Made by a program: the position numbers and the translations under genes. The notes below the pieces were generated by a model that worked only from the letters and a program-made list of their open reading frames with translations, made no database searches and was not told the origin of the DNA. A stretch of DNA of 64,000 nucleotides. It comes from an uncultured Candidatus Saccharibacteria bacterium (lineage in GTDB: Bacteria > Patescibacteriota > Minisyncoccia > Phycocordibacterales > JACOZG01). Where the stretch lies: positions 42,273 through 106,272 of the forward strand of contig CAZYXJ010000001.1 in NCBI GenBank assembly GCA_964651115.1, written 5' to 3'. The stretch's first letter is position 1; each line of letters starts with the position of its first letter. Shown here piece by piece: positions 27,635 to 60,608 of this stretch.

Positions 27635-28111
27635 ATGTTTTATAAAAAAATTCTTACGTTCGTAAAAGAGGACCAGGCCGATCGAGCAATGATTCGGAAA
27701 AAATTGCCACCAAGCAAGAAGATGTTGTTGTGGTTAAAAAGACGAGATGAACAGCGATTGAAAGATATTTGTAAGCTTGGTGCTCAAAATTATCATAAAT
27801 TCTCAAAGAAAACCCTTTTCAATGTTGCTTTAATTATGACTCATGCTTTGCCACTAGAGCATCAGTTAGTTGCTGGAGTTATTGCCGATAGGAGCTATTC
27901 TTTAGGGTTTAAGCGGGCCGATAAACTAAGAAAAATAACAGCGGATAGAATATTGGTTTCAAAATATCAAAAACAAAAATATGGCACTCAGCAGCAATAT
28001 CTGAATGGTAAGTTTATTCCTTATCCGGTAAGTCATAAGCTGAAAGATCCGTTAATTGAATTAACCCCGGAAGAAAAAGAAGTTATTGTTGGAAAAGCGT
28101 TTTCTGTTTGA
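27635..28111 (+). CDS. hypothetical protein (low GC)
   Basis: 158 aa basic protein with no recognised family. This is the first gene of the low-GC block. Confidence 0.4.
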   Translation: MFYKKILTFVKEDQADRAMIRKKLPPSKKMLLWLKRRDEQRLKDICKLGAQNYHKFSKKTLFNVALIMTHALPLEHQLVAGVIADRSYSLGFKRADKLRKITADRILVSKYQKQKYGTQQQYLNGKFIPYPVSHKLKDPLIELTPEEKEVIVGKAFSV

Positions 28112-28113
28112 GG

Positions 28114-29442
28114 CTAGAGATACCCCCACTCGCGGAGTTTGTCCATGCCGCTTTTGATAAAACGATTGCCGATGTCGTTGCGGTAAAACATTTTAGGGAT
28201 GTACACTTTATTGGCCAAGCCATAAACTTTGTTTTGGGCCTGCTCGACTGTCTGACCCATACCCGTGATGTAAAGCACATAACCGCGATGATCGGAGATG
28301 TAATACTGGTTTTCTCCGGCGCGGAGAGCCATCTCTTCGAAGTGGAAGTGCCGCCACTCATCCTTTTTTAACTTGTCGTCAAAGTAGATATTCAAACCAT
28401 AGGGCGAGTTTTGGGGCAACTTCTTGTTGTGGGGGAAAGGGGGGACGGTGATCAAAATGACGATACCATAACCACGACGCCATTTGAGTTTATATGGTTC
28501 GCCTTTGGCCACGGCGTAAAGAAATTCCCCCCACGGCGACTGATGGATCTCGTCATGCAAATAAGTAATCGGTGAGCCAAAGCGAGGAGTCGCCTCAAGG
28601 GGGTAGGCACCCGTTTCGTTAACGATGCAATTGATATCGATATCGCCCCGGAAGCCAATCTCTTGTAAGTAGGGTTTGAGTTTAGCTAGGGTCTCTTGGA
28701 ATAATTTATTTTCTGCCTCGTTATCGTCATACCAAGCCAGGGTGCCCATCTCGCTAGTTGGGGGGCCAAGATCTCCCGGGAAGAACTTTTTGTGTTCTAC
28801 GTTCATCTCGATTGGACCAACCCAATCATTGCCGTTAAAGTAGCGGCCGACGCCAATTTCGACACCGTCGATACGCTCTTGGAGAGTAATCGCCCGCGCT
28901 TGGCTCTTGAGATTACGATTGTAGTTTTCTAAGACACTGGCCACATCACGACTATCGGCAAAATGAGAGACGTAGTTGAGACTTTTGGAAGCGTTGCCGT
29001 TCTGCTTGATTACCCACGCGCCACGATTATCTTTTAGGAATTGAATGGCGTCAAGAATATCTTTAAAGGTCTTGAGGGGGACCGTTTTGATTCCATATTT
29101 TGCAAAAATGGCCTGACCGTATTGACGATCAGACTCTAATTTATCCCCCAATTCACAACCCCCAAAAACTGTATAACCCTCTTTGCGCAAGTCGTCTTGG
29201 ACTTTTCCCGAGCCAATGTCGTCAAAAATAATTAGTCCATTCTTGCCGACCCAAAAGAGTTCCTGGCGCCAGTCTTGAGTCTTTTCGACCAAGCCAGAGA
29301 AGTTGGTTTGGGCCTCGGGGGGCAGATAGAGCCGGACACTGTGGCCCTCTTGCTTTAGACGCACCGCTAAGTGCGGGGCGATCATATTTTCGGACGATAC
29401 AAACAGGATATTCCTGGCAGTCATATGTTGTATTTCTAACAC
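28114..29442 (-). CDS. phosphoribosylamine--glycine ligase (PurD/GARS)-like ATP-grasp enzyme
   Basis: Collinear similarity to PurD: AWVIKQNGNASKS resembles IVIKADGLAAGKG, EATPRFGSP resembles EFNCRFGDPE, and the C-terminus GMGQTVEQAQNKVYGL...RNDIGNRFI resembles the PurD C-domain (ALGHTVAEAQKRAY...RKDIGWRAI). Confidence 0.65.
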   Translation of the reverse strand: MLEIQHMTARNILFVSSENMIAPHLAVRLKQEGHSVRLYLPPEAQTNFSGLVEKTQDWRQELFWVGKNGLIIFDDIGSGKVQDDLRKEGYTVFGGCELGDKLESDRQYGQAIFAKYGIKTVPLKTFKDILDAIQFLKDNRGAWVIKQNGNASKSLNYVSHFADSRDVASVLENYNRNLKSQARAITLQERIDGVEIGVGRYFNGNDWVGPIEMNVEHKKFFPGDLGPPTSEMGTLAWYDDNEAENKLFQETLAKLKPYLQEIGFRGDIDINCIVNETGAYPLEATPRFGSPITYLHDEIHQSPWGEFLYAVAKGEPYKLKWRRGYGIVILITVPPFPHNKKLPQNSPYGLNIYFDDKLKKDEWRHFHFEEMALRAGENQYYISDHRGYVLYITGMGQTVEQAQNKVYGLANKVYIPKMFYRNDIGNRFIKSGMDKLREWGYL

Positions 29443-29477
29443 ATAAACAGTATCACGTAAAGCCCCAGACTGTCAAA

Positions 29478-30398
29478 TTAGCCGTAGAAAGCTAGGCCTA
29501 TGCCGCCAAGAACAAGTAATAGGATGGCAATAAATTTTTTTACCAAATTTTTTCGATCTAAAGATTCATTAAAGTGGCGAGGAAGAAATTTTGTTAGCAA
29601 GGCGCCGATAACAAGAACGAATAGTGGCTGAAGAGAGTTAACAACATAGACAAGTGCCACCGGGGCTAGAAGTACAGCATAATTAAAAAGTAAATCTGCG
29701 CCGATCATAGAGCCTTCGGTGGCTGATCCAAATTTAATCATTTTGATTCCTGCGCTGCGATAGAGGGCGAAAAAATCTCGACGGTACGAACCAATAAAAA
29801 TTAAGAGCAGTAAACCGAGAAGCATGATGCCGGAGTATTCCCAAAATTGTGATTGCCAATAACCCGCATCCAGAGCAATTTTCTTAAAGATCACGCCAGA
29901 CAGAGCCGAAAAAAAAGAGGCTGTGCCCATAAGCAACAAGAGTTTACCCTTTAACTTAAAGGTGCCATTTTCAGTAGCCAAAGAAAGCAAAAAAGCTCCT
30001 AAAATAATTACCGCACACAGAATCATTTGAATCGCAGAAAGTTGTTCTCCTAGAACGACATAACCCAAAACATAGGAAAAAACTGGGATTAATTGATAAA
30101 GCGGAACAACCAATGAGGCCTCATACCTATGGAGAGCATTAAGATATAGCGCCAGGCTACTCATGCTGATAACCCCATTAATAACCAGCGTGATTTTAAA
30201 AGTCGAAGAAAGTAAAAAAACTCCCTGATCAAGAAAGAAAGAGATGGGAACCATGATTCCCGCAAAAAGTGCTGAAAAAATGACGATCCCGCCAATACCA
30301 CCATCTTCTTTTACGAAATGACTAAGAACGAACTTGTCGATGAAATTGGCCGCGGTATACAGCAAGGGCGCCCCCAGGGCCACTAGAAACCAAGACAT
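29478..30398 (-). CDS. EamA-like (DMT superfamily) transporter
   Basis: 306 aa with about 10 TM helices in two repeated halves. Low GC. Confidence 0.7.
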   Translation of the reverse strand: MSWFLVALGAPLLYTAANFIDKFVLSHFVKEDGGIGGIVIFSALFAGIMVPISFFLDQGVFLLSSTFKITLVINGVISMSSLALYLNALHRYEASLVVPLYQLIPVFSYVLGYVVLGEQLSAIQMILCAVIILGAFLLSLATENGTFKLKGKLLLLMGTASFFSALSGVIFKKIALDAGYWQSQFWEYSGIMLLGLLLLIFIGSYRRDFFALYRSAGIKMIKFGSATEGSMIGADLLFNYAVLLAPVALVYVVNSLQPLFVLVIGALLTKFLPRHFNESLDRKNLVKKFIAILLLVLGGIGLAFYG

Positions 30399-30589
30399 AA
30401 GGTGTAGTATAATTTAAACAATAAATCTAATCCACTAGCATTTATGACCCTTGCGTCCAAAATTTTAGTTGCCGTTCTTTTATATGCAATATTTTTTTCA
30501 ATTTTTGTTACCTTCCACCAGGGGGTAATTTTAAAAAAATATGATCTAATTAGCACTGAAGAGAATTAAACTTTAGCGACCAATGAACT

Positions 30590-31117
30590 CTAAATAACTT
30601 GTCTATTAATTTTTTCTTGTAAATACCACTGAAAATACCCTTTGTATCTTTTTTGCAATTCTTTGTTTTTCCAATCTTGGTCGGTGATGATATTTCTACA
30701 GTTCTTAGAGGCACACAAACAATTTAGAGAATACGAAACTTGTTCGCTCTCTGATCCAAGAGCCATTGCATAATCAAAAGTTACAGCTTCCCCAACTAAA
30801 ATTTCTCTCATGGCCACCAAAATAATCTGTCCATGAAAGCCAGCATTTGGGTCACAGGAATGATTGAAAAAACAAGCTGGTTCGATTTCTGATTCTTTTT
30901 TTATCCCCAAAACAAAATCATCACCAATCTGTAGGCCATAATCAGAAAGATTGGCTGGGCCTTCTTTTTCTTCTTTTATTGTCATCACGTATCCTCCAAA
31001 TATTGCTAAAACTTCGCCCTTCATTATTTTTTTTGCGGCAAATACGCCCCTCCCTGCCCCAGAAGTTGTTTCTTGCAACTTTAGTTTTTCGTTAACCCAA
31101 GAGAAAGAATTGTGCAT
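30590..31117 (-). CDS. SET-domain protein (putative protein-lysine methyltransferase)
   Basis: GRGVFAAKKI (GxG), FFNHSCDPN (NHSCxPN), EAVTFDY (ELxFDY) and post-SET CLCASKNC. Low GC, about 38%. Confidence 0.8.
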   Translation of the reverse strand: MHNSFSWVNEKLKLQETTSGAGRGVFAAKKIMKGEVLAIFGGYVMTIKEEKEGPANLSDYGLQIGDDFVLGIKKESEIEPACFFNHSCDPNAGFHGQIILVAMREILVGEAVTFDYAMALGSESEQVSYSLNCLCASKNCRNIITDQDWKNKELQKRYKGYFQWYLQEKINRQVI

Positions 31118-31160
31118 TTAAATTTGTTTATAAGTAAAAACTCACGCTATAATCATAAGT

Positions 31161-32825
31161 ATGCTAAATAACCTCATTACTTGTCCAGATTCTGTGCCAA
31201 ACTTCCTGGGAATTGTTGATACCCAACTAGCCCCTCCATTGCTATTTTATTCATATCTACCAATTATTGCCATTTGCTTATTTATGGGGGGATACGTTCT
31301 TGCGGCAAGCAAGTTTTCCCTAATTTCTAAAGCTTTCTTGGCCATCAGCATATTTTTTTCATTATGGTCAGCAAACGCACTTTTCCAGTGGATCGGGGTT
31401 CACGCCGACATAGTTCACTTTTCTTGGCAAATAATCATATTGTTTGAAGCCCTAATGTTTATTTCCGTGTTTTATTTTTCTTACGTTTTTTTACACAACA
31501 AGACACCATCGATATGGTGGCAAGTTGCACTGTCGGTTATTTTGTTCCCAATTATCTTACTTTTACCGTCCCGTTTGAATATCACCGCTTTTGATTTAAC
31601 TAATTGCGCCGGACTAGTTGGCTCTTTATGGCGATACGAATATGTAATGGAATTTTTCATTGCAATTTTGATTTTGTATTTTACCTTTAAGAAATGGCAA
31701 ATTAAAAAGAACATGAAAAGTAAAGAGGTTCTTTTGGGAGTTTCGTCCACTTTTTTTCTGGTCTTATTTTCGATTACAAACATAATTGGCGACGCCACTG
31801 GTTACTATCAAGTAACACTGGCGGGATCTATAGGTTTTGCAGTTTTCTTGGGAGCAGTTGTTTTCCTCATCGTCCGCTATAAGGCCTTCAATATTAAGAT
31901 CATTGGAACACAGGCCCTGGTTGTAACTTTGTGGGTTTTGACTGGATCATTGCTTCTGGTGGCCAAATCGGAAGTCACCCGAATCATTGTGGCATTAACA
32001 GAGATCGTCTCAATTATCTTCGGTCTCATTTTGATTAAAAGTGTTAAGCGAGAAGTCGCGCAGCGGGAAAAAATCGAAAAATTGGCCAGTGCCCTGGCGG
32101 AGACAAACGACGAGCTAAACGTGGCTAACGAAAAACTTAAAGAACTAGACAAACAGAAAACCGAATTCGTTTCGGTGGCGTCGCATCAGTTGCGTGCTCC
32201 GACTACGGCCATCAAAGGTTACTCCTCAATGCTTCTCGAAGGTTCTTATGGTCCGCTGGAAGAGAAGGCCAAGCAAGCTGTCGACGTCATTTTCCAATCA
32301 GCCCAAAAACTTAATTTCGTGATCGAAGATTTTCTCAACATTACCCGCATTGAGTTGGGCAAAATGAAGTATGAGATTTCTGAAGTTGATTTAAAGAAAA
32401 TGGTTGATCAGGTATTTAAGGAGCTCGACCCCGTGGCCAAGCGCAAGGGTCTCGAATTTAGCTTTAGTGCTGGACGAGGCTCGTTTAAGGTGATGGCCGA
32501 TCCCAGCAAGCTTTCCCAAGTCATTATGAATATTGTGGATAACTCAATTAAATATACTCCCAGTGGTTCAATTAAGGCTCGCCTTGAGGTCAAGGGAGGC
32601 AAACGTCTCTTTAGTATTACCGACACCGGTGTCGGCATGAGCGAAGAGACTCGGGGGCGCCTATTCCAAAAGTTTACTCGTGCCTACAACGCCAGCGCCT
32701 CTAACGGCACCGGTACTGGCTTAGGACTCTTCGTCGCCAAACAAATGATCGAGGCCCAAGGCGGACGTCTGTGGGTTGAGTCTGCCGGCGAAGGGAAGGG
32801 GAGCACCTTCTTTGTGGAGTTGTAG
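31161..32825 (+). CDS. sensor histidine kinase with N-terminal multi-TM sensor domain (orphan)
   Basis: About 7-8 TM helices, then HisKA H-box FVSVASHQLRAPTTAIKGY and HATPase_c G-boxes (DTGVGM, GTGLGLFVAK). No response regulator is adjacent. A TATAAT lies about 8 nt before the ATG. Confidence 0.85.
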   Translation: MLNNLITCPDSVPNFLGIVDTQLAPPLLFYSYLPIIAICLFMGGYVLAASKFSLISKAFLAISIFFSLWSANALFQWIGVHADIVHFSWQIIILFEALMFISVFYFSYVFLHNKTPSIWWQVALSVILFPIILLLPSRLNITAFDLTNCAGLVGSLWRYEYVMEFFIAILILYFTFKKWQIKKNMKSKEVLLGVSSTFFLVLFSITNIIGDATGYYQVTLAGSIGFAVFLGAVVFLIVRYKAFNIKIIGTQALVVTLWVLTGSLLLVAKSEVTRIIVALTEIVSIIFGLILIKSVKREVAQREKIEKLASALAETNDELNVANEKLKELDKQKTEFVSVASHQLRAPTTAIKGYSSMLLEGSYGPLEEKAKQAVDVIFQSAQKLNFVIEDFLNITRIELGKMKYEISEVDLKKMVDQVFKELDPVAKRKGLEFSFSAGRGSFKVMADPSKLSQVIMNIVDNSIKYTPSGSIKARLEVKGGKRLFSITDTGVGMSEETRGRLFQKFTRAYNASASNGTGTGLGLFVAKQMIEAQGGRLWVESAGEGKGSTFFVEL

Positions 32826-32921
32826 CTTAAGCGAGCTATAGTATACTTCTAAGTAGACCCAACCATAAGTTCTCGTGCGAGAGCGGGGTGGGACGATCTT
32901 TACCAAAATAGGAGATGGGCC

Positions 32922-34037
32922 ATGTGGTTAACCGGTTGTTTGGTTGCCGCCTCAGCTCTGGCGGTTGGCCAGACCGAGTACGAAACTTTTTACCCCTTAA
33001 GCCAACAGCGACCGACTCTGCAGCACGTCGCGCGTCCCGTCGGCCAACAAACAAGAGGACGATACCTTTTTTCTGATCCCGAACGACTTACCGCCGGGCA
33101 AGTTGCGGGGATCCAATTCTCCACTCTTATTTATTTTTCCCCGGAGGGACTGCCCAAATCACCCGTCCGCGTGCGCCTGTGGCTTTACGAAGAACCGGTC
33201 GCCCCGAGCATCGCTCACGGGCAGATCCAAGTCGCGCGCGTCACCAGTTCTTGGGAAGCCAAAAAAGTTACTGGCCGTTTAATGGGCCAAGCCAAATCTT
33301 CACGTCGTCACGCCTGGAAGTTCATTGATCTGACCGAGACTTATTTGGCGTGGCGCTCGGGGCTGTGGACCGAGCAGAATTATGGTCTAGCCATTTGCCC
33401 GACGGCTAAGTCAACCGACCCAGGCCAGATGAACTCTTTTGCGAGCTGGGAACATCCGGTAGAATCGGTTAGGCCTTTTCTGGCAATCCAAACGGCCGAT
33501 ACTGGCTGGTACCATTTTCCTTTGCGGGGAGGTTATTTGCCCGAGATGATTACTGGTTACAACTTTGGCGAACCGTGGTTGCCAGAGAGCCAGCGAACCA
33601 TCTCGCCAGCCAATTTTCCTCTCTTGCATACAGGCATTGATTTGCGAGCAGAAGTCGGCGATCCGGTCTGTGCGATTGCCTCAGGGATGGTGAGGCTCTC
33701 AACGGCTGATGAGAAGTGGGGTGGATACATCGTGGTAGAGCATCATCACGGCGACACTCCTTACACCGCCACTTACACTCACGTCCTACCTGGTGGACTG
33801 TGGGTTAGTCAGCTCTTTTGGGTTCAGGCCGGAGACGTTCTGGGGACTATTGCGCCCGGTAACGCCAATTTTTCGCCCCACCTGCACTTCCAGATCAGAT
33901 TGGGCGAGTATGACCCGACTCGATCATTGCTCGGCAGGCTACCAGAAGTTTCCGCCACCACCACCGCCTCACCAACCGTGCCCGAGCCAGCCTTTCCCGA
34001 AAATTTTTATGACCCACGGGTGATGCCTTGGGAATAA
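32922..34037 (+). CDS. secreted M23 (LytM-type) metallopeptidase
   Basis: Signal peptide, HTGIDLRAEVGDPV (HxxxD), and HHHGDTPYTATYTHV...SPHLHFQI (HxH). Confidence 0.8.
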   Translation: MWLTGCLVAASALAVGQTEYETFYPLSQQRPTLQHVARPVGQQTRGRYLFSDPERLTAGQVAGIQFSTLIYFSPEGLPKSPVRVRLWLYEEPVAPSIAHGQIQVARVTSSWEAKKVTGRLMGQAKSSRRHAWKFIDLTETYLAWRSGLWTEQNYGLAICPTAKSTDPGQMNSFASWEHPVESVRPFLAIQTADTGWYHFPLRGGYLPEMITGYNFGEPWLPESQRTISPANFPLLHTGIDLRAEVGDPVCAIASGMVRLSTADEKWGGYIVVEHHHGDTPYTATYTHVLPGGLWVSQLFWVQAGDVLGTIAPGNANFSPHLHFQIRLGEYDPTRSLLGRLPEVSATTTASPTVPEPAFPENFYDPRVMPWE

Positions 34038-34044
34038 AAATATA

Positions 34045-34080
34045 AGCGCCAGTACCACCTTAAGTGGTACTGGCGCTCTT
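34045..34080. terminator. bidirectional hairpin terminator between convergent genes
   Basis: Perfect 14 bp stem AGCGCCAGTACCAC/GTGGTACTGGCGCT with a 5 nt loop. U-rich flank on the minus strand, weaker on the plus strand. Confidence 0.55.
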
Positions 34081-34086
34081 CGCTGC

Positions 34087-34350
34087 TCACAGATCATACT
34101 CTCCTCCTTCGCCCGCGCTTAAGCGGGGGCAATTTTCCATGACGTCCTTCGCTTCCGCTCGGGGTCTCACTGTCCACGCTGGCGGTAGGGGATAAGGCCG
34201 CTCCGCTTTGGGGACAGCGACGACGGCCTGCGGCGGCTCCACCTTGGGTGGAGGAGCTTCAGCGGGCGGTGCAACCTCCGGCGCCGAGGAGTTTTCGCAA
34301 CTCGGAGCCAGCACCAACACCAGGAGTACCAGCCAGATCAGACTCTTCAT
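34087..34350 (-). CDS. small secreted Pro/Ala-rich protein
   Basis: 87 aa with signal peptide MKSLIWLVLLVLVLAPSC, possibly a lipobox. It overlaps the upstream gene by 92 nt in another frame. Confidence 0.4.
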   Translation of the reverse strand: MKSLIWLVLLVLVLAPSCENSSAPEVAPPAEAPPPKVEPPQAVVAVPKAERPYPLPPAWTVRPRAEAKDVMENCPRLSAGEGGEYDL

Positions 34351-34714
34351 CGATCACCTCCTTAGAAAGAGTGGGGTTCCAATACAACGCCAGGATCGCT
34401 TCGCCACACGGCACGCAAGTTTGATAACAACCTACCTGGTCATTGTAGTAGTAATAGGCCTTGGCACAGCCCGTGTCGCAACCACTGCGCACGGCATCCA
34501 TTTCTTCCCCATAGCTATAGCCATCGGCATAATCTTGCCTGGCGGCGGAGATGATCGAAGCGATGTAGTTATCGCTATAACCCGCGGGTCGACATAGGCG
34601 ATAAGCCCGGTCGACGGGCGACTCCACGACGGGGGCCGGGGCACAACCCTGACCGGATAGGAAGGGGAAGATCAACCACAAGGCGACGATCCCCACAAAC
34701 AGTTTTCGACTCAC
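34259..34714 (-). CDS. small Cys/Tyr-rich secreted (lipo)protein
   Basis: 151 aa with signal peptide MSRKLFVGIVALWLIFPFLSGQGC, eight Cys residues and a YYYY motif. Confidence 0.45.
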   Translation of the reverse strand: MSRKLFVGIVALWLIFPFLSGQGCAPAPVVESPVDRAYRLCRPAGYSDNYIASIISAARQDYADGYSYGEEMDAVRSGCDTGCAKAYYYYNDQVGCYQTCVPCGEAILALYWNPTLSKEVIDEESDLAGTPGVGAGSELRKLLGAGGCTAR

Positions 34715-34841
34715 GAGATTTCCTCCTAAAAATAGAGAGGGGAAAAGGGACCAGTCAACATTTAGAGAGCAACGAGCTCCACCTTTAGACTAGCACACTC
34801 TAGTTTTACCCGCACTATTTTTTTGCTATGATTGTCCACAT

Positions 34842-35792
34842 ATGGTCAATCAAGAAAAAGTCCTCCTTTCCGGTGTTAAGCCGACAGGCCGCCCCCACTT
34901 GGGCAATTATTTTGGCGCCTTAAAACAGTTTGTTAACCTGCAAAATGAGTATCGCTGTTTTATTATGCTGGCCGATTATCACGCCCTAACGACTGAGAAC
35001 GATCCGGCCGCCTTGCGCCAAAACACCCTCGATCTAGCCATCGATTATTTAGCCATTGGCCTGGATCCAGAGCGCGTGACTCTCTTTAAGCAATCAGCCG
35101 TGCCAGCGCACACCGAGCTCGCTTGGATCTTTAACTGTCTCACCACCATGCCTTACTTGATGCGCGCGCACGCCTTCAAGGACGCGGAAGCCAAAAACAA
35201 AGAGATTAGTGTGGGTACTTTTGACTACCCAATGCTCATGGCCGCCGACATTCTACTTTATGAGGCTGATGTCGTGCCGGTGGGACAGGATCAGAAACAG
35301 CATATCGAGATCGCTCGCGACACGGCCGAAAAATTTAATCGACTGTTTGGCGAAACCTTTAAACTTCCCGAGCCCCTGATTTTGCCCGAAGTAAAAACGG
35401 TGCCCGGTATTGATGGCCAAAAAATGAGTAAAAGCTACGGCAACACCATCCCGCTCTTTGCTTCTGATGAGGAAATCACCAAACAGGTAATGGCAATCGT
35501 CACTGATTCCAGCGGCGAGGTGCCACAAAATGTTTACGAGATCCACAAACTTTTCCGCAGCCCCGAGGACTTGGTCGCGATTTACGAGTCCAAAAAGGGG
35601 AGGTATAAAGAACTTAAAGAGGCTTTAATTACTGATATTTGCCAGTTCGTGGCGCCGCTACGCGAGCGGCGAGCGGCCATTGCCTCGGACCCGTCAAGAG
35701 TGGAAGAAATTTTAACGCTCGGCGCGGAGACGGCCCGGACCCGGGCCCAGGCCACTCTTGAGCGCGCTCGCTCCGCCGTCGGAATTTCTTAA
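34842..35792 (+). CDS. trpS: tryptophanyl-tRNA synthetase
   Basis: HIGH-region (GVKPTGRPHLGNYFGA), KMSKS motif and TrpRS-specific motif (GQDQKQH). Confidence 0.93.
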   Translation: MVNQEKVLLSGVKPTGRPHLGNYFGALKQFVNLQNEYRCFIMLADYHALTTENDPAALRQNTLDLAIDYLAIGLDPERVTLFKQSAVPAHTELAWIFNCLTTMPYLMRAHAFKDAEAKNKEISVGTFDYPMLMAADILLYEADVVPVGQDQKQHIEIARDTAEKFNRLFGETFKLPEPLILPEVKTVPGIDGQKMSKSYGNTIPLFASDEEITKQVMAIVTDSSGEVPQNVYEIHKLFRSPEDLVAIYESKKGRYKELKEALITDICQFVAPLRERRAAIASDPSRVEEILTLGAETARTRAQATLERARSAVGIS

Positions 35793-37625
35793 ATGAGAGA
35801 ACGAATTCGTAAAATCAGAAGTTCGTCTTGGGCCTTGCTTAAAAATTGTTGGCGTTCGTTGGGTTACGCCTATCAATTTTCGCCCCGAGCCATCATCCTC
35901 ATGCTCGTTCTGGGCTCCCTGATTCCAGCCCTGACCTTCGCTCAAAATAAATATTTTGGGCGCGTGATTGACGGACTGGTTTCTTCCGTCGCGGCTCGCG
36001 AGCTTAATGCGCTGTGGCAACTGGTAGGCATCTATGCCCTCCTACTGATGATTAGCCCGATCTTGCGGGCGATTCGCCTCGCGGTGGAGAAACGCTACTA
36101 TCTCAAGCTCCAAGAGGGCATGGAAATTTTGTTGCTCCGGCGCCGAAGCGAGACCGATATCGCCACGCTGGAAGACAAAAATTACCAAGACCTCCTTCAG
36201 CGAGCGCTCCAGCGCGGCCACTGGCCCATCAGTTCGATTGTCGACCACCTACTCATCGCCTGGCAGAGCCTGATGGCCGTAGCGATCGGCTCGCTCGTCG
36301 CCGTCTGGTTTGACTGGCGGATCTTTGTGATTGTGATTACCGCTTCACTTCCCAAATTTGTTGCCGACATCAGGCACGGCCAAGACGTGTGGAGCATTCA
36401 CGCTCACGCCAGCCCTGATCAGCGACGCTTTGGCGACTTGCGTTTCCACATTGGCAATCGCATCTCTCTGATTGAGACCAAGCTGTATCAAAGCAGTAAT
36501 TGGATCATCAACTGGATGGGAAAAATTTTGGGCAAGTTTACGGACGACCAAATCTCGGCCGAACAGCGTCGCCTAAAATGGGTCGTGATGGCAGAGGTGC
36601 TTTCCACCGCCGGCTTCGTGCTCGCCATTCTCTTGATTGTTCGTGAGGTAATGGCGGGCAACATCCAGATCGGCGCGATGACCTTCGTGGTTGCTTCGCT
36701 GTCTCAGCTCGATAGTTCCATTTCTGGTCTATTGATTAGCATTGCCAAGCAGTACGAAGCTAACCAATATGCTAACGATATCTATCGGGTAATGGATTGG
36801 CCGCCCGCGATTGCGCACGCCAAGAAACCCAAAAAACTTGAGCTTGATGGGCCACCCGAAATCGTTTTCGAAAACGTCTCCTTTCATTACCCCCACGATC
36901 CCAAACTGATTCTTGACGGTCTTAACCTCACAATCAAAGCCGGAGAAAAATTGGGGATCGTCGGCATCAACGGTGCCGGTAAAACCACGCTCGTTAAGCT
37001 CTTGTGTCGGATCTATGATCCAACCAGTGGGCGCATTCTCGTCAATGGTCTCGACCTGCGCCAAGTAGAACTGGAAGAATGGCATTCGGTTTTAGCCGTT
37101 TTGTTCCAGGACTACACGTCCTTCGATTTCCAGACCGACCAAGCGATTGCCATGGGGCGAGTCGAGCAGGAAATTGTTCCTGAGCAAGTCCGAGCCGCGG
37201 CCGAAACTAGTGATGCCGATTCCTTTATTCGTCATTGGAAAAACCAATACGAAGAAATGTTGGGTGTGGAATTCGGCGGTCAGGAGCTCTCACGCGGCCA
37301 GCGCCAGAGATTGGCCATTGCGCGAGCGGCTTATCGTCAGGGACGCGTCCTCGTCCTCGACGAACCAACGGCCTCCGTCGACGCCGATTCGGAGATGAAA
37401 ATCTTTGAACGGTTAGAGTCCTGGAATGGGGCGACAATGATCCTCATTTCTCATCGCTTCAACACTCTGCGCCGCGCCAGTCGGATCATGTTGATCGAGG
37501 GCGGCAAGGTGGCGGAGATCGGCTCGCACGAAGAGCTGATGGCCCTCGGTGGACGCTATGCCGAAATGTTTACGCGGCAAGTGGAGAGCTACGTCGAGAC
37601 CCCGACCGAAAGCACGGTCAGTTAA
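35793..37625 (+). CDS. ABC exporter, fused permease-ATPase (MsbA/type I exporter-like)
   Basis: Six-TM domain plus NBD with Walker A GINGAGKTT, signature LSRGQRQR and Walker B LVLDEPT. Confidence 0.85.
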   Translation: MRERIRKIRSSSWALLKNCWRSLGYAYQFSPRAIILMLVLGSLIPALTFAQNKYFGRVIDGLVSSVAARELNALWQLVGIYALLLMISPILRAIRLAVEKRYYLKLQEGMEILLLRRRSETDIATLEDKNYQDLLQRALQRGHWPISSIVDHLLIAWQSLMAVAIGSLVAVWFDWRIFVIVITASLPKFVADIRHGQDVWSIHAHASPDQRRFGDLRFHIGNRISLIETKLYQSSNWIINWMGKILGKFTDDQISAEQRRLKWVVMAEVLSTAGFVLAILLIVREVMAGNIQIGAMTFVVASLSQLDSSISGLLISIAKQYEANQYANDIYRVMDWPPAIAHAKKPKKLELDGPPEIVFENVSFHYPHDPKLILDGLNLTIKAGEKLGIVGINGAGKTTLVKLLCRIYDPTSGRILVNGLDLRQVELEEWHSVLAVLFQDYTSFDFQTDQAIAMGRVEQEIVPEQVRAAAETSDADSFIRHWKNQYEEMLGVEFGGQELSRGQRQRLAIARAAYRQGRVLVLDEPTASVDADSEMKIFERLESWNGATMILISHRFNTLRRASRIMLIEGGKVAEIGSHEELMALGGRYAEMFTRQVESYVETPTESTVS

Positions 37626-38318: not shown

Positions 38319-38366
38319 CCCCCCCCCCCTGATCAACACCGAGTGTTGATCAGGGGTTTTCTTTTG
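38319..38366 (+). terminator. terminator hairpin formed by dispersed palindromic element (copy 1) with C11 tract
   Basis: C11 (38319-38329), then TGATCAACAC-CGA-GTGTTGATCA, then GGGG and TTTTCTTTTG. Together these give a 14 bp stem ending in a T-run. An inverted copy occurs at about 59951-59995. Confidence 0.7.
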
Positions 38367-38405
38367 AACGTTTTTCTTTTGAGAAAATATGTTAAACTCA
38401 ACTTG

Positions 38406-39800
38406 ATGAAAAATAGAACTAATATTAAAGACCTTAGTCAAAAAGTGGGGGAGGAGGTGGTAATTGCCGGCTGGGTGGATGTCCGCCGCGACCAGGGCAA
38501 AATGATCTTCTTCGACTTCCGCGATAAAACCGGTAAGGTGCAAGGCGTGATTCTTCCGGGCGCCAAAGAGGCGCACGCCGTGGGCGAAAAGCTCCGCCCC
38601 GAGTGGGTGGTCGAAGTAACGGGTAAGGTCAACGCTCGACCCGAGAAAAACATCCAAGCCGACAAACTAAACGGCGGGATTGAACTAGAAATTTTGGGAC
38701 TTAAAATTTTGAACGAAGCTACCACGCCGCCCATCCCACTCGGCGATGACGGGTACGAAATTGGTGAGGAGAACCGACTCAAGTATCGCTACTTAGACTT
38801 ACGCCGCGAGCGACTGCAAAAAAATCTTCGCCTACGCCACGAAGTAATCCGCCTGATCCGCAATCATTTAAGTGACCAAGGATTTGCGGAGGTCGAAACA
38901 CCGATTTTAACCAAATCAACGCCCGAAGGTGCTCGGGACTATGTTGTCCCTTCGCGGGTTTATCCCGGCAAATTCTACGCCCTGCCCCAGTCGCCCCAGC
39001 AATACAAACAATTGCTCATGGCCGCCGGTCTAGAGAACTATTTCCAAATTGCTCGCTGTTTCCGCGACGAGGACACTCGCGGTGATCGTCAGCCAGAATT
39101 TACTCAGTTAGATATGGAGTTGTCTTTTGTGGATCGCGAAGAGGTGATGGAACTTAACGAAGAGCTTTTGATTAAGATTGTCCAGACCCTCACGCCCGAG
39201 AAAAAAATTCAAACCATTCCCTTCCCGCGTCTAACCTACGCCGAAGCGATGGAAAAGTATGGCACTGACCGACCTGACTTGCGCGAAAATAAGGATGATC
39301 CAAACCTACTCGCTTTTTGCTGGGTAATCGATTTCCCCTTCTTTGAAAAAACCGAGGAAGGTGGCTGGACTTTTACTCACAACCCCTTCTCTCGGGCCAC
39401 CGCCGAATGGGAGAGCGCCCTCATGGAGAAGCGCGACCTCGAAAAGATTTTAACGACTCAGTATGACGTCGCCCTCAATGGCTTCGAAATTGGCGGCGGC
39501 TCGATTCGTAATCATCGGCCCGAGGCGCTCAAAAAAGTTTTTGAAATAATGGGCTTTAGCGAAGACAGAATTGTTAAAAACTTCGGCCACATGCTAGAAG
39601 CCTTGGGATCGGGGGCGCCACCACATGGCGGCATTGCCTGGGGTCTCGACCGCTTTATCTCTCTCTTGGCTGGCGAACCAAATATTCGAGAAGTAATTGC
39701 GTTCCCCAAAACCGGCGAGGGTCAAGACTTGATGATGAACGCCCCTTCAGACATCGAAGCTAAACAATTAAATGAACTCCGAATCAAAGTTTCAAGTTAA
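38406..39800 (+). CDS. aspS: aspartyl-tRNA synthetase (short, no GAD insertion)
   Basis: OB-fold N-domain and class II motifs. TKSTPEGARDYVVPSRV...FYALPQSPQQYKQLLM and QIARCFRDEDTRGDRQPEFTQLD are diagnostic for AspRS. Start set at the internal ATG at 38406. Confidence 0.92.
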   Translation: MKNRTNIKDLSQKVGEEVVIAGWVDVRRDQGKMIFFDFRDKTGKVQGVILPGAKEAHAVGEKLRPEWVVEVTGKVNARPEKNIQADKLNGGIELEILGLKILNEATTPPIPLGDDGYEIGEENRLKYRYLDLRRERLQKNLRLRHEVIRLIRNHLSDQGFAEVETPILTKSTPEGARDYVVPSRVYPGKFYALPQSPQQYKQLLMAAGLENYFQIARCFRDEDTRGDRQPEFTQLDMELSFVDREEVMELNEELLIKIVQTLTPEKKIQTIPFPRLTYAEAMEKYGTDRPDLRENKDDPNLLAFCWVIDFPFFEKTEEGGWTFTHNPFSRATAEWESALMEKRDLEKILTTQYDVALNGFEIGGGSIRNHRPEALKKVFEIMGFSEDRIVKNFGHMLEALGSGAPPHGGIAWGLDRFISLLAGEPNIREVIAFPKTGEGQDLMMNAPSDIEAKQLNELRIKVSS

Positions 39801-59323: not shown

Positions 59324-59398
59324 GGCCCTATCGTCTAATGGCTAGGACATCACCCTCTCACGGTGGTAATCGGGGTTCGACTCCCCGTAGGGTCACCA
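59324..59398 (+). tRNA. tRNA-Glu (anticodon CUC), CCA encoded
   Basis: Manual cloverleaf: acceptor GGCCCTA/TAGGGTC, D-arm GTCT..GGAC, anticodon stem TCACC/GGTGG with loop CTCTCAC, T-arm CGGGG-TTCGACT-CCCCG, discriminator A and CCA. Confidence 0.7.
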
Positions 59399-59438
59399 AG
59401 TCGTGCTGAGTCTGTATGCACGAGAAGCGTCGAAAAAT

Positions 59439-59945
59439 ATGGAACAAATTCTCAAGTTAAATCCAAGCAATATCACCGATGAAGCGTCTGCCCGCCTAAA
59501 AACAAGGTTCGCTTCTAGGGGTGTTGTTTTTGACGGGGATAAAAATGTAGCTCTTCTGCCAGTAACGGCTCATAACTATTACAAACTTCCTGGCGGCGTG
59601 ATAGAAGATGGTGAGGATAAGGTGGAAGCTTTTCGCCGAGAATGTTTGGAGGAAATCGGTACGGATGTGGATGTAATCCAGGAACTCGGTTCAGTGGTGG
59701 AATATCGGGCAGAATTTTCTCTGGTTCAAACATCCTACTGCTATGTCGGCAAAATAAAAGGTGAAAAACATAAAGCTACATTTACTCAACACGAGCTAGA
59801 TAGTGGTTTTCGAGATGCAATTTGGCTACCACTGGAGAAAGCTATTGAGCTCATGGAAAGTCAGGCCGATAATCATGAGGGCAAATATGTTGTTGAGAGA
59901 GATACTTTCTTACTGAAAAAAGTTGGGGCCTTAAAAACTATCTAG
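59439..59945 (+). CDS. NUDIX hydrolase
   Basis: Nudix box GGVIEDGEDKVEAFRRECLEEIG (Gx5Ex7REUxEExGU). Start probably the ATG at 59439 (MEQILK). The ORF track opens at the GTG at 59403. Confidence 0.72.
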   Translation: MEQILKLNPSNITDEASARLKTRFASRGVVFDGDKNVALLPVTAHNYYKLPGGVIEDGEDKVEAFRRECLEEIGTDVDVIQELGSVVEYRAEFSLVQTSYCYVGKIKGEKHKATFTQHELDSGFRDAIWLPLEKAIELMESQADNHEGKYVVERDTFLLKKVGALKTI

Positions 59946-59950
59946 CCAAA

Positions 59951-59995
59951 AACCCCCTGATCAACACTCGGTGTTGATCAGGGGGGGGGGGTGAC
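59951..59995 (-). repeat. dispersed palindromic element copy 2 (inverted) with G11 tract
   Basis: CCCCCTGATCAACAC-TCG-GTGTTGATCAGGGGG followed by G-run 59981-59991. It is the reverse complement of copy 1 (38319-38366), including the 11-nt homopolymer. Confidence 0.65.
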
Positions 59996-60065
59996 AGGGG
60001 TTCTTAAAAAAAATTAGGGGGCGCTCGAGAAGCATAATTAATGGCTTTTCTGCTATCATACTATT

Positions 60066-60608
60066 ATGAATAGCTCAGTCATCGTTCTAAACGGTCCAAT
60101 GTGTGCAGGAAAAAGCACGATCACAAAGCTACTGATGCAGAATAATAATGTTTTTCGTGGTTCTTATGATGCAGTTAAGTGGCTTATAAGTAACTATTCT
60201 GCCGACAATGAAAATCATAGAAGAATTGCAAAAGAAGTAATTTTCAGTGCAATAACTACTGCTATTGAATCTGGTTTATCTATTGTTATAGATGGCGGTT
60301 TTGCAGATTTTAGAAACAGATACAAAGAACTTGCTCAAAAGTTTAATTTTGAGTATATAAGTCTAAATATTGAGGCGCCTATCAAAGTTTTAGAAAAAAG
60401 ATTCTTGGAACGAGTTAATTCCGCTAACCAAGTAAATAGTAAGACTATCAGTGTAACAACGCTAGAAGGTTTTTATTCTCGATATCAATGGTATTTGAGT
60501 ACCAACAAAGATTTTGATGGAATTACCTTTGATTCGAGTAAATTAACAGCAGAAGAGATTGTTACCGAAATTATAAAATTAACCAAAGTCCGCCACATGG
60601 CGGGCTAG
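60066..60608 (+). CDS. P-loop kinase, chloramphenicol phosphotransferase (CPT)/zeta-toxin-like
   Basis: VIVLNGPMCAGKSTI resembles the CPT N-terminus IILNGGSSAGKS. About 180 aa, similar in size to CPT. Very low GC, about 35%. Confidence 0.6.
   Translation: MNSSVIVLNGPMCAGKSTITKLLMQNNNVFRGSYDAVKWLISNYSADNENHRRIAKEVIFSAITTAIESGLSIVIDGGFADFRNRYKELAQKFNFEYISLNIEAPIKVLEKRFLERVNSANQVNSKTISVTTLEGFYSRYQWYLSTNKDFDGITFDSSKLTAEEIVTEIIKLTKVRHMAG

Follow-up and report, generated by a model that had tools for sequence, protein, structure and literature searches.

SET-domain enzymes are usually treated as chromatin writers, and those of prokaryotes as effectors or primitive chromatin modifiers. Genomes with bacterial SET genes numbered 83 of 390 in 2007 and more than 500 in 2014, Methanoregula boonei being included (PMC3980110), and a 2011 proposal, in the form in which that article cites it, holds that SET domains were present in prokaryotes first and were then transferred to eukaryotes. 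Gö1-SET of Methanosarcina mazei methylates MC1-alpha and cpnSET of Chlamydophila pneumoniae methylates Hc1, while NUE, RomA/LegAS4, BtSET and BaSET bear targeting signals and reach eukaryotic cells by secretion (PMC3980110). BurB of Burkholderia thailandensis (PDB 9l4t and 9l4v) is a stand-alone SET protein of 172 residues that S-methylates free methionine (PMC12542666), and thus small SET proteins can methylate free small molecules. Outside the SET fold, plant putrescine N-methyltransferase carries out the S-adenosylmethionine (SAM)-dependent N-methylation of a polyamine primary amine (PMC3725402). Here we describe a SET gene of an uncultured Candidatus Saccharibacteria bacterium, a reduced member of the candidate phyla radiation (CPR); it lies in a 64,000-nucleotide stretch of contig CAZYXJ010000001.1, which we call the window. 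The enzyme class is already known, and the SET assignment itself is ordinary. What seems new is the cassette in which the gene stands, with a histidine kinase bearing eight transmembrane (TM) helices, a PurD-like ligase and an EamA transporter, together with a link to polyamine genes and a set of fusion proteins, none of which was found in our literature searches.

The SET gene occupies positions 30590 to 31117 of the minus strand, begins with ATG and encodes 175 amino acids plus a stop codon, as defined by its open reading frame (ORF), the Pfam match and the fold model. An earlier reading made from the letters of the window (the sequence-only reading) had given exactly this frame, and had rightly taken its owner for a reduced bacterium. 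Pfam PF00856 (SET) aligns to residues 22–116 over positions 1–104 of its 105, that is, nearly the whole profile, at 50.9 bits (E = 2.3e-13), well above the gathering cutoff of 22.4 bits and in agreement with the profile check that reading had proposed; no NCBIfam model matched the protein. An alignment of 39 family sequences served both for residue conservation and for an AlphaFold2 model. The SAM-binding GxG motif, G20-A-G-R-G24 in translation, is encoded at 31046–31060 of the minus strand, as are, on the same strand, the NHSCxPN pseudoknot motif N85-H-S-C-D-P-N91 (30845–30865), the ELxFDY-type motif E110-A-V-T-F-D-Y116 (30770–30790) and the post-SET zinc motif C133-x-C135-x4-C140, here C133-L-C135-A-S-K-N-C140 (30698–30721). 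In the alignment N85, H86, C88, D115 and the three post-SET cysteines are invariant, and conservation reaches at least 90% at G22, G24, E110 and Y116; C88 serves as the fourth zinc ligand. Of the signatures that had been announced, GxG, NHSCxPN and CxCxxxxC are present as described, whereas the Leu of ELxFDY is not: the segment E110–Y116 fits ExxxFDY, with Ala in place of Leu, and the family consensus is GEE[VI]TFDY.

The AlphaFold2 model (predicted local distance difference test, pLDDT, 94.5; predicted TM-score, pTM, 0.89) has the SET fold, and Foldseek matched it to MLL1, ASH1L, NSD1, SETD2 and BurB with probability 1.0 and E values of 7e-9 to 1e-7, around the 1e-8 level. By phmmer against the PDB, the top match was the SET plus post-SET region of MLL1/KMT2A (E = 5e-11), over residues 22–144 with the zinc motif included. 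The protein is therefore a member of the SET superfamily by its profile, its GxG, NHSC and catalytic Tyr motifs and its beta-clip/pseudoknot fold, and its sequence assigns it to the SET plus post-SET zinc-cluster subclass of MLL/SUV39/SET2 type. In the alignment with MLL1, from which the MLL1 numbering is derived, N85/H86 correspond to N3906/H3907, Y116 to Y3944, and F114 to Y3942, the Phe/Tyr-switch residue in the MLL1 segment E-L-T-Y3942-D-Y3944. The four zinc ligands C88, C133, C135 and C140, all invariant in the 39 sequences, correspond to C3909, C3957, C3959 and C3964. In SET7/9 the counterparts of N85, H86 and Y116 are N296, H297 and Y335 (PMC1282579). The loss of the catalytic Tyr or Asn had been named beforehand as the mark of an inactive relic; N85 is invariant and Y116 at least 90% conserved. 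The protein is very probably an active enzyme.

A further feature sets the family apart. The C-terminal tail, residues 141–175 (30593–30697, minus strand), has the consensus DWKxPELQKRYxGYFQWYLQEKI in the family alignment; R141 is invariant in it, and conservation is at least 90% for D148, W149, Q155, Y158 and F162. The model gives the tail a strand and two helices (pLDDT 88–98). These 35 residues are kept throughout the family and are absent from MLL1-type SET domains. The N-terminus, as read from the translation, is polar, with no signal peptide and no hydrophobic signal. As to quaternary structure, many of the top representatives (among P0194–P0253) are tandem SET-SET proteins of about 350 residues, a few of 1,400–2,150 residues carry up to nine SET matches, and two SET genes lie close together in loci L005, L022, L047 and L091; the tandem proteins and paired genes suggest that the functional unit may be a dimer.

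Family relatives occur in at least 597 species of the GTDB in a scan of one genome per species. An exhaustive profile search returned 671 cluster representatives at 50% identity with E ≤ 1e-30, and 7,200 with E ≤ 1e-10. A word-indexed search gave 120 homologues, nearly all single-domain proteins of 165–200 residues, the best at 60% identity once the window's own 100%-identical entry is set aside; their source names include Parcubacteria, Moraniibacteriota, Micrarchaeia and Pacearchaeota, and NCBI labels family members "SET domain-containing protein-lysine N-methyltransferase". Among the GTDB matches listed, the CPR is represented by Saccharibacteria, Kaiserbacteria, Moraniibacteria and Nealsonbacteria, the archaea by Woesearchaeota, Pacearchaeota and Aenigmarchaeota (DPANN) and by the methanogen Methanoregula, and other bacteria by many Anaerolineae (Chloroflexota), Gammaproteobacteria, Nitrospirota, Desulfobacterota, Omnitrophota, Acidobacteriota, Verrucomicrobiota and the cultured Thermanaerothrix solaris. 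Family members from DPANN archaea, CPR bacteria, free-living Chloroflexota and methanogens are 40–60% identical. Bacterial SET proteins had been called uncommon, which neither these numbers nor the 2014 count of more than 500 bacterial genomes bears out. A metagenome scan with the single SET protein as query gave five loci. Relatives are also found on IMG/VR contigs, namely L099, L100 and 72 others; two of these proteins are full-length with the tail, at 42% and 37% identity, and most other viral relatives are 23–33% identical and lie on contigs of 100–500 kb, probably from giant viruses.

The closest genomic partner of the SET gene is a sensor histidine kinase. For the comparison of neighborhoods, ORFs were called and clustered in 98 related loci (given L numbers where they must be told apart) plus the window; loci whose SET protein is at least 47% identical to that of the window are called close (n = 32) and the others distant (n = 59), 91 in all. 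In the window the kinase gene (31161–32825, plus strand) is divergent from the SET gene and directly adjacent to it, across an intergenic region of 43 bp (31118–31160) whose layout and length are the same in L001. The kinase, of 554 residues, comprises an 8-TM sensor domain (residues 1 to about 270, about 31161–31970), a long signalling helix, a dimerization and histidine phosphotransfer (DHp) domain with H342, and an ATPase domain; Pfam HisKA and HATPase_c match it, and the eight membrane helices are those of its AlphaFold2 model. An orthologous sensor domain stands beside SET in 18 of the 32 close loci and in 1 of the 59 distant ones (Fisher p = 1.6e-9, kinship between loci being ignored). 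Its orthologues, in 18 other kinases at 29–92% identity, are confined to SET-adjacent kinases, save for L096 and L098, which have no SET and were reached by a kinase-led search. SET and kinase, presumably co-transcribed in many relatives, lie on one strand in 10 loci, with the stop codon of SET and the start codon of the kinase overlapping or no more than 5 nt apart; four loci (the window, L001, L028 and L081) have them divergent, with 16–99 bp between. Scans for promoters and terminators gave consensus-level matches only, such as a promoter-like minus-strand segment at 31187–31158.

The kinase core looks intact, with H342 and the N, G1 and G2 boxes invariant. Some kinase homologues carry Pfam HisKA_7TM. 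In the PDB the full-length kinase model matched only kinase cores (HK853, WalK and others), and no structure matched the 8-TM sensor fold in that search. A response regulator is not conserved beside the kinase in the 98 loci and the window, being present only in L006 and L089. In locus L097 (1–6581) an orthologous kinase diverges from a different SET gene, of 130 codons and without the post-SET cysteines, whose product reaches only E = 0.027 in BLAST against the window SET, yet 44.8 bits against Pfam SET. By sequence, this is a non-orthologous replacement, and it strengthens the functional link between SET and kinase. Of the two kinase orthologues without SET, that of L096 stands in a set of genes running EamA, S-adenosylmethionine decarboxylase (AdoMetDC), ATP-grasp ligase and kinase, and that of L098 has two further recurrent genes, c6 and c63, beside it.

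Downstream of SET and on the same strand are two more genes of the cassette, so that the window SET is directly adjacent to an orthologous-sensor kinase on one side and accompanied by EamA and PurD-like genes on the other. The nearer (29478–30398, minus strand) encodes a membrane transporter of the EamA family (drug/metabolite transporter, DMT, superfamily) with 306 residues and a Pfam EamA match; its orthologues stand beside SET or the kinase in 10 loci, one gammaproteobacterium among them. The farther (28114–29442, minus strand) encodes a PurD-like ATP-grasp ligase of 442 residues with Pfam GARS_A and GARS_C matches. Its best PDB matches are PurD (E = 6e-22), but it scores 108.9 bits against TIGR00877 (purD), for which the cutoff is 288; a true PurD is thus ruled out, and the protein is a paralogue. 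Ligase orthologues, 45–62% identical, are found in SET or kinase cassettes of five phyla, in 10–13 loci, from Saccharibacteria, Moraniibacteria, Minisyncoccia, Nitrospirota, Desulfobacterota and Gammaproteobacteria. The recurrence of the ligase, EamA, c6 and c63 takes in Kaiserbacteria also. It had been stated that no partner and no secretion signal were evident: the latter holds, but kinase, EamA and PurD-like genes all recur as partners.

Neither c6 nor c63 is present in the 64-kb window. The small c6 product has a single TM helix at its N-terminus and a tail that is strongly acidic and rich in Cys; it has no significant Pfam match and recurs between or beside SET, kinase and ligase in eight loci (L006:3129–3701, L010:3768–4211, L011:5630–5971, L014, L015, L025, L089 and L098). 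The c63 product, a conserved domain of about 255 residues adjoining SET or kinase cassettes, is found in L005 (1448–2209), L009 (4057–4836, minus strand), L082, L087 and L098, and N-terminal to SET in the fusion proteins P0242 and P0265; it had no Pfam or PDB relative, even by profile at E ≤ 10, and appears to be an uncharacterized partner domain.

The second association is with the genes of polyamine metabolism. AdoMetDC, agmatinase or SpeE is encoded within 6 kb of SET in 8 of the 91 loci, from at least five phyla; polyamine-gene loci come from Saccharibacteria, Omnitrophota, Woesearchaeota, Nealsonbacteria, Chloroflexota, Gammaproteobacteria and one metagenome contig. Over a neighborhood of 12 genes, a rough random expectation is 1–2 loci in 90, and about 10 were observed, an excess that is suggestive only. 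Just upstream of the SET-kinase pair of L097, and next to it, are genes for an arginine/ornithine decarboxylase (ADC), a deoxyhypusine-synthase-like protein and agmatinase, and in L084 AdoMetDC, an MprF-C-like gene and SET stand in a row. The immediate neighbors of distant family members include BpsA_C (branched polyamine synthase) twice, the DDAH/arginine-deiminase superfamily three times and SAM hydrolase (SAM_HAT) three times. Besides the c63 fusions, P0260 joins SET to an AdoMetDC-like domain, P0232 joins LPG_synthase_C (the MprF C-terminal, aminoacyl-tRNA transferase-like domain) to SET, and P0319 joins SET to a membrane (TM) domain.

The history of the locus bears on all readings of its function. 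In L001, the Candidatus Saccharibacteria metagenome-assembled genome (MAG) that is closest among the matches listed (one genome per GTDB species), the SET protein is 89% identical, and window positions 28847–35827 form one collinear block with it at 83% nucleotide identity. Housekeeping genes flank the cassette: on one side rpoA, grpE-dnaK-dnaJ, an ABC-F ATPase and an M16 peptidase, and on the other an M23 peptidase, a class-I aminoacyl-tRNA synthetase (aaRS), an ABC transporter and a class-II aaRS. Parts of this neighborhood also surround the SET genes of more distant Saccharibacteria: L009 has grpE-dnaK-dnaJ, L011 the ABC-F gene and L050 the class-II aaRS. Between window and L001, SET, kinase and EamA have ratios of nonsynonymous to synonymous divergence (dN/dS) of 0.05, 0.043 and 0.061, respectively, at a dS of about 1. 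The SET ORF has 36.6% GC in a window of 51%, and its GC content at third codon positions (GC3) is 0.31, against 0.55–0.60 in most other window ORFs (about 0.58 in the flanks); it is 0.312 in both the window and L001 despite the dS of about 1. Since the GC anomaly has outlasted synonymous divergence of about one change per site, in a locus that is syntenic and has no integrase or transposase genes around it, recent import is disfavored, and the evidence argues for an old resident of Saccharibacteria rather than a fresh arrival. A recent genomic island, which the atypical composition might have indicated, is rejected given the site shared with L001 and the synteny with L009, L011 and L050. The sequence-only reading had seen a horizontally acquired gene in a low-GC accessory block. 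The gene is indeed a compositional outlier, but the low-GC region is not contiguous, the PurD-like gene inside it having a native GC3 of 0.56 and EamA 0.40, and the acquisition does not agree with the shared site in other Saccharibacteria and the strong constraint on the gene. Along the kinase gene, GC3 rises from 0.39–0.40 over the first 200 codons to 0.66 over the last 55 or so. Elsewhere the cassette has clearly moved between phyla, as in L025 (a 299-kb gammaproteobacterial contig) and L006 (a Moraniibacteria contig), where it forms a low-GC3 island in flanks of higher GC.

Two observations concern the composition itself. In every mid-GC genome examined (window, L001, L005, L006 and L025) the SET gene has the lowest GC3 of the cassette, 0.28–0.35, and this low level is apparently maintained. 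Plotted cumulatively, the GC skew of the window is Lambda-shaped, positive from 1 to 28 kb, on a plateau at 26–40 kb and negative from 40 to 64 kb, with its maximum at about 29,080; the peak suggests a replication terminus at or beside the SET cassette, and this position is a possible alternative reason for the local AT-richness that needs no horizontal transfer.

Some other features of the window and the related loci may be mentioned here. An ORF of 158 codons (27635–28111, plus strand; GC3 0.31) abuts the PurD-like gene; neither a Pfam match nor a relative in the 98 loci was found for it. Genes of class-II aaRS type (tRNA-synt_2), some without an anticodon-binding domain, recur within a few kilobases of the SET-kinase pair (L002:4570–5760, L006:9114–10457, L086:854–4317, L089:10751–12070 and window 38343–39800), a recurrence that may reflect either housekeeping synteny or some functional connection with lysyl/aspartyl transfer. 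At the far end of the window, tRNA-Glu(CTC) (59324–59398) is followed by low-GC3 ORFs at 59403–59945 (0.365) and 60066–60608 (0.276); the region 59324–60608 may be a small tRNA-associated island. Among the family loci, no gene for chromatin, ribosomal, EF-P, MC1-, Hc1- or HU-type proteins is a recurrent neighbor of SET, and the neighboring genes of the Micrarchaeia and Pacearchaeota SETs were not informative.

What, then, does the SET protein methylate? We infer that the cassette genes work in one pathway, and our tentative proposal, the one we lean toward while judging it somewhat short of probable, is that the protein is an active intracellular N-methyltransferase in a kinase-linked amine pathway of polyamine or lysyl type. 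SAM would bind at the GxG motif (G20–G24) and at N85/H86; a terminal primary amine on an aliphatic chain would enter the narrow channel ending at Y116 and there be methylated. By analogy with DIM-5 and G9a, Phe at the switch position allows multiple methylation, and Phe114 could thus permit the transfer of more than one methyl group. As substrate we would expect, instead of a host histone, an endogenous amine of lysine or polyamine type that the cassette handles: candidates are a polyamine, or a lysyl, ornithyl or polyamine conjugate or envelope-bound amine made by the ATP-grasp ligase or by an MprF-C-like enzyme. EamA would move the amine product, and the kinase would sense or regulate the process. 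An endogenous aliphatic amine is favored over a chromatin protein because identity of 40–60% is kept across lineages that share no chromatin protein, a conservation across domains that would argue for a universal substrate, and because the neighbors are metabolic, transport and envelope genes, with the fusions and the BurB precedent pointing the same way. It is tempting to extend this proposal to the family as a whole, as an N-methyltransferase for polyamine- or lysyl-type amines, free, ligated or envelope-attached, with a CPR module that makes, exports and senses the methylated amine through the 8-TM kinase; in this wider form we consider it doubtful.

Several points weigh against an amine substrate. 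The protein is far more similar to protein lysine methyltransferases (KMTs; MLL1, E = 5e-11) than to BurB (E = 2.4e-4), and the family does not conserve the channel Tyr (Y59) that takes the position of MLL1 Y3883. For the polyamine association the evidence is about 10 loci, kinship ignored, and single-contig fusions, of which P0260, on one contig only, could be an artefact of gene calling. There is no polyamine gene in the 64-kb window, and many distant family members have unrelated neighbors. Finally, the tight coupling of SET to the kinase equally fits methylation of the kinase itself. On that account the enzyme would be a protein-lysine methyltransferase with an endogenous target, most economically the partner kinase or its putative response regulator, whose methylation would serve for adaptation or tuning; other possible targets are universally conserved basic proteins, such as EF-P/aIF5A, ribosomal or nucleoid proteins. 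We take this to be a genuine possibility, though on the less likely side. Characterized N-methylating SET enzymes all act on protein lysine, the best sequence and structure matches are histone KMTs, and NCBI names the family accordingly. The translational coupling in 10 loci, and the non-orthologous SET that takes its place beside the same kinase in L097, speak for the kinase as target, and the deoxyhypusine-synthase-like and class-II aaRS genes near some loci could indicate a lysine of a translation factor. Yet the kinase is confined to a CPR-centered subclade, while lineages that lack the kinase also conserve the enzyme and its tail; in L096 the kinase occurs together with ligase, EamA and AdoMetDC although SET is missing; genes for chromatin or ribosomal proteins or EF-P do not recur as neighbors; and the fusions join AdoMetDC-like, MprF-C-like and membrane domains, not protein-targeting modules.

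The sequence-only reading had itself suggested a horizontally acquired enzyme that could modify proteins of a host cell or its own nucleoid proteins, with NUE, RomA/LegAS4 and BaSET as precedents. The organism is a CPR bacterium that depends on a host, the gene is atypically low in GC, and such effectors are known in pathogens (PMC3980110). The present data leave an effector that methylates host-cell histones or host nucleoid proteins very improbable. The protein has no signal peptide and the window no secretion-associated neighbor; the family has many members in free-living Chloroflexota, methanogens and Proteobacteria, and spans lineages with no chromatin protein in common; the locus is syntenic and old in Saccharibacteria, its GC3 unchanged; and the gene has a membrane kinase, a ligase and an exporter as its conserved partners, in a metabolic, envelope and signalling context. 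The known hosts of Saccharibacteria, moreover, are bacteria, which have no histones. It is just as improbable that the protein is an inactive relic, or a SAM-binding regulatory pseudo-enzyme that modulates the kinase. The variable channel Tyr could be read in that way, but variation is absent or nearly absent at the SAM-binding, catalytic and zinc residues, dN/dS is low, the fold is predicted with high confidence and the family holds 671 conserved clusters.

Irrespective of the substrate, a minimal SET family that crosses domains has a reproducible genomic link to a sensor kinase, to amide ligases and exporters and to polyamine genes, fusions included. If the amine proposal is true, it would define an unstudied pathway in CPR and DPANN organisms, whose physiology is largely unknown, and would offer a concrete hypothesis on the role of SET domains in prokaryotes before the transfer to eukaryotes that the 2011 proposal assumes. 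The methylated-amine module, if real, would contain the first SET-fold amine or polyamine methyltransferase and the first methyltransferase-coupled two-component sensor of its kind, with control of envelope charge or signalling between episymbiont and host as possible roles. If, alternatively, SET methylates its partner kinase, this would be a new mode of regulation in two-component signalling.

It remains to compare the protein with the described systems. Our literature searches for SET in Patescibacteria, SET with polyamine and SET with ATP-grasp gave nothing relevant, and no prokaryotic or SET-type polyamine N-methyltransferase was found in them. Plant putrescine N-methyltransferase is a functional analogue only, its Rossmann fold being derived from spermidine synthase and unrelated to SET. 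The secreted effectors share with the window protein a SET catalytic domain in a host-associated bacterium; unlike them, it has no secretion signal, its host is a bacterium, and its family is mostly in free-living prokaryotes. The effector class of NUE and RomA/LegAS4 is accordingly rejected, given the polar N-terminus, the lack of nearby secretion genes and the assignment of the organism to Saccharibacteria. Gö1-SET and cpnSET are nearer in that they are prokaryotic enzymes acting inside their own cell, and the window family includes the methanogen Methanoregula; they differ in that no MC1-, Hc1- or HU-type gene is a conserved neighbor here.

The best sequence match is MLL1, a histone H3K4 methyltransferase (PDB 2w5y, 5f5e and 7u5v) that is also among the top structural matches, with about 30% identity over residues 22–144, the same GxG, NHSCxPN and xFDY motifs, and a CxCx4C post-SET zinc site to which NHSC contributes the remaining Cys. 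Unlike MLL1, the window protein is a stand-alone prokaryotic protein of 175 residues without WRAD partners, with a 35-residue aromatic tail, Phe at the switch and a Y3883 equivalent that the family does not conserve, and its gene stands among those of a kinase, a ligase and an exporter. BurB is likewise a small stand-alone bacterial SET protein in a metabolic gene cluster, and a structural match (E = 5e-8, TM 0.6). An orthologue of BurB it is not, for the sequence match covers residues 84–146 only and lies well below those to MLL1. BurB methylates sulfur, in a cluster for the synthesis of dimethylsulfoniopropionate (DMSP) from methionine (PMC12542666), whereas methylation of an amine would be expected here. 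If the substrate is a polyamine-like amine, or one bound to lipid or peptide, the chemistry of the SET fold would be widened once more after BurB.

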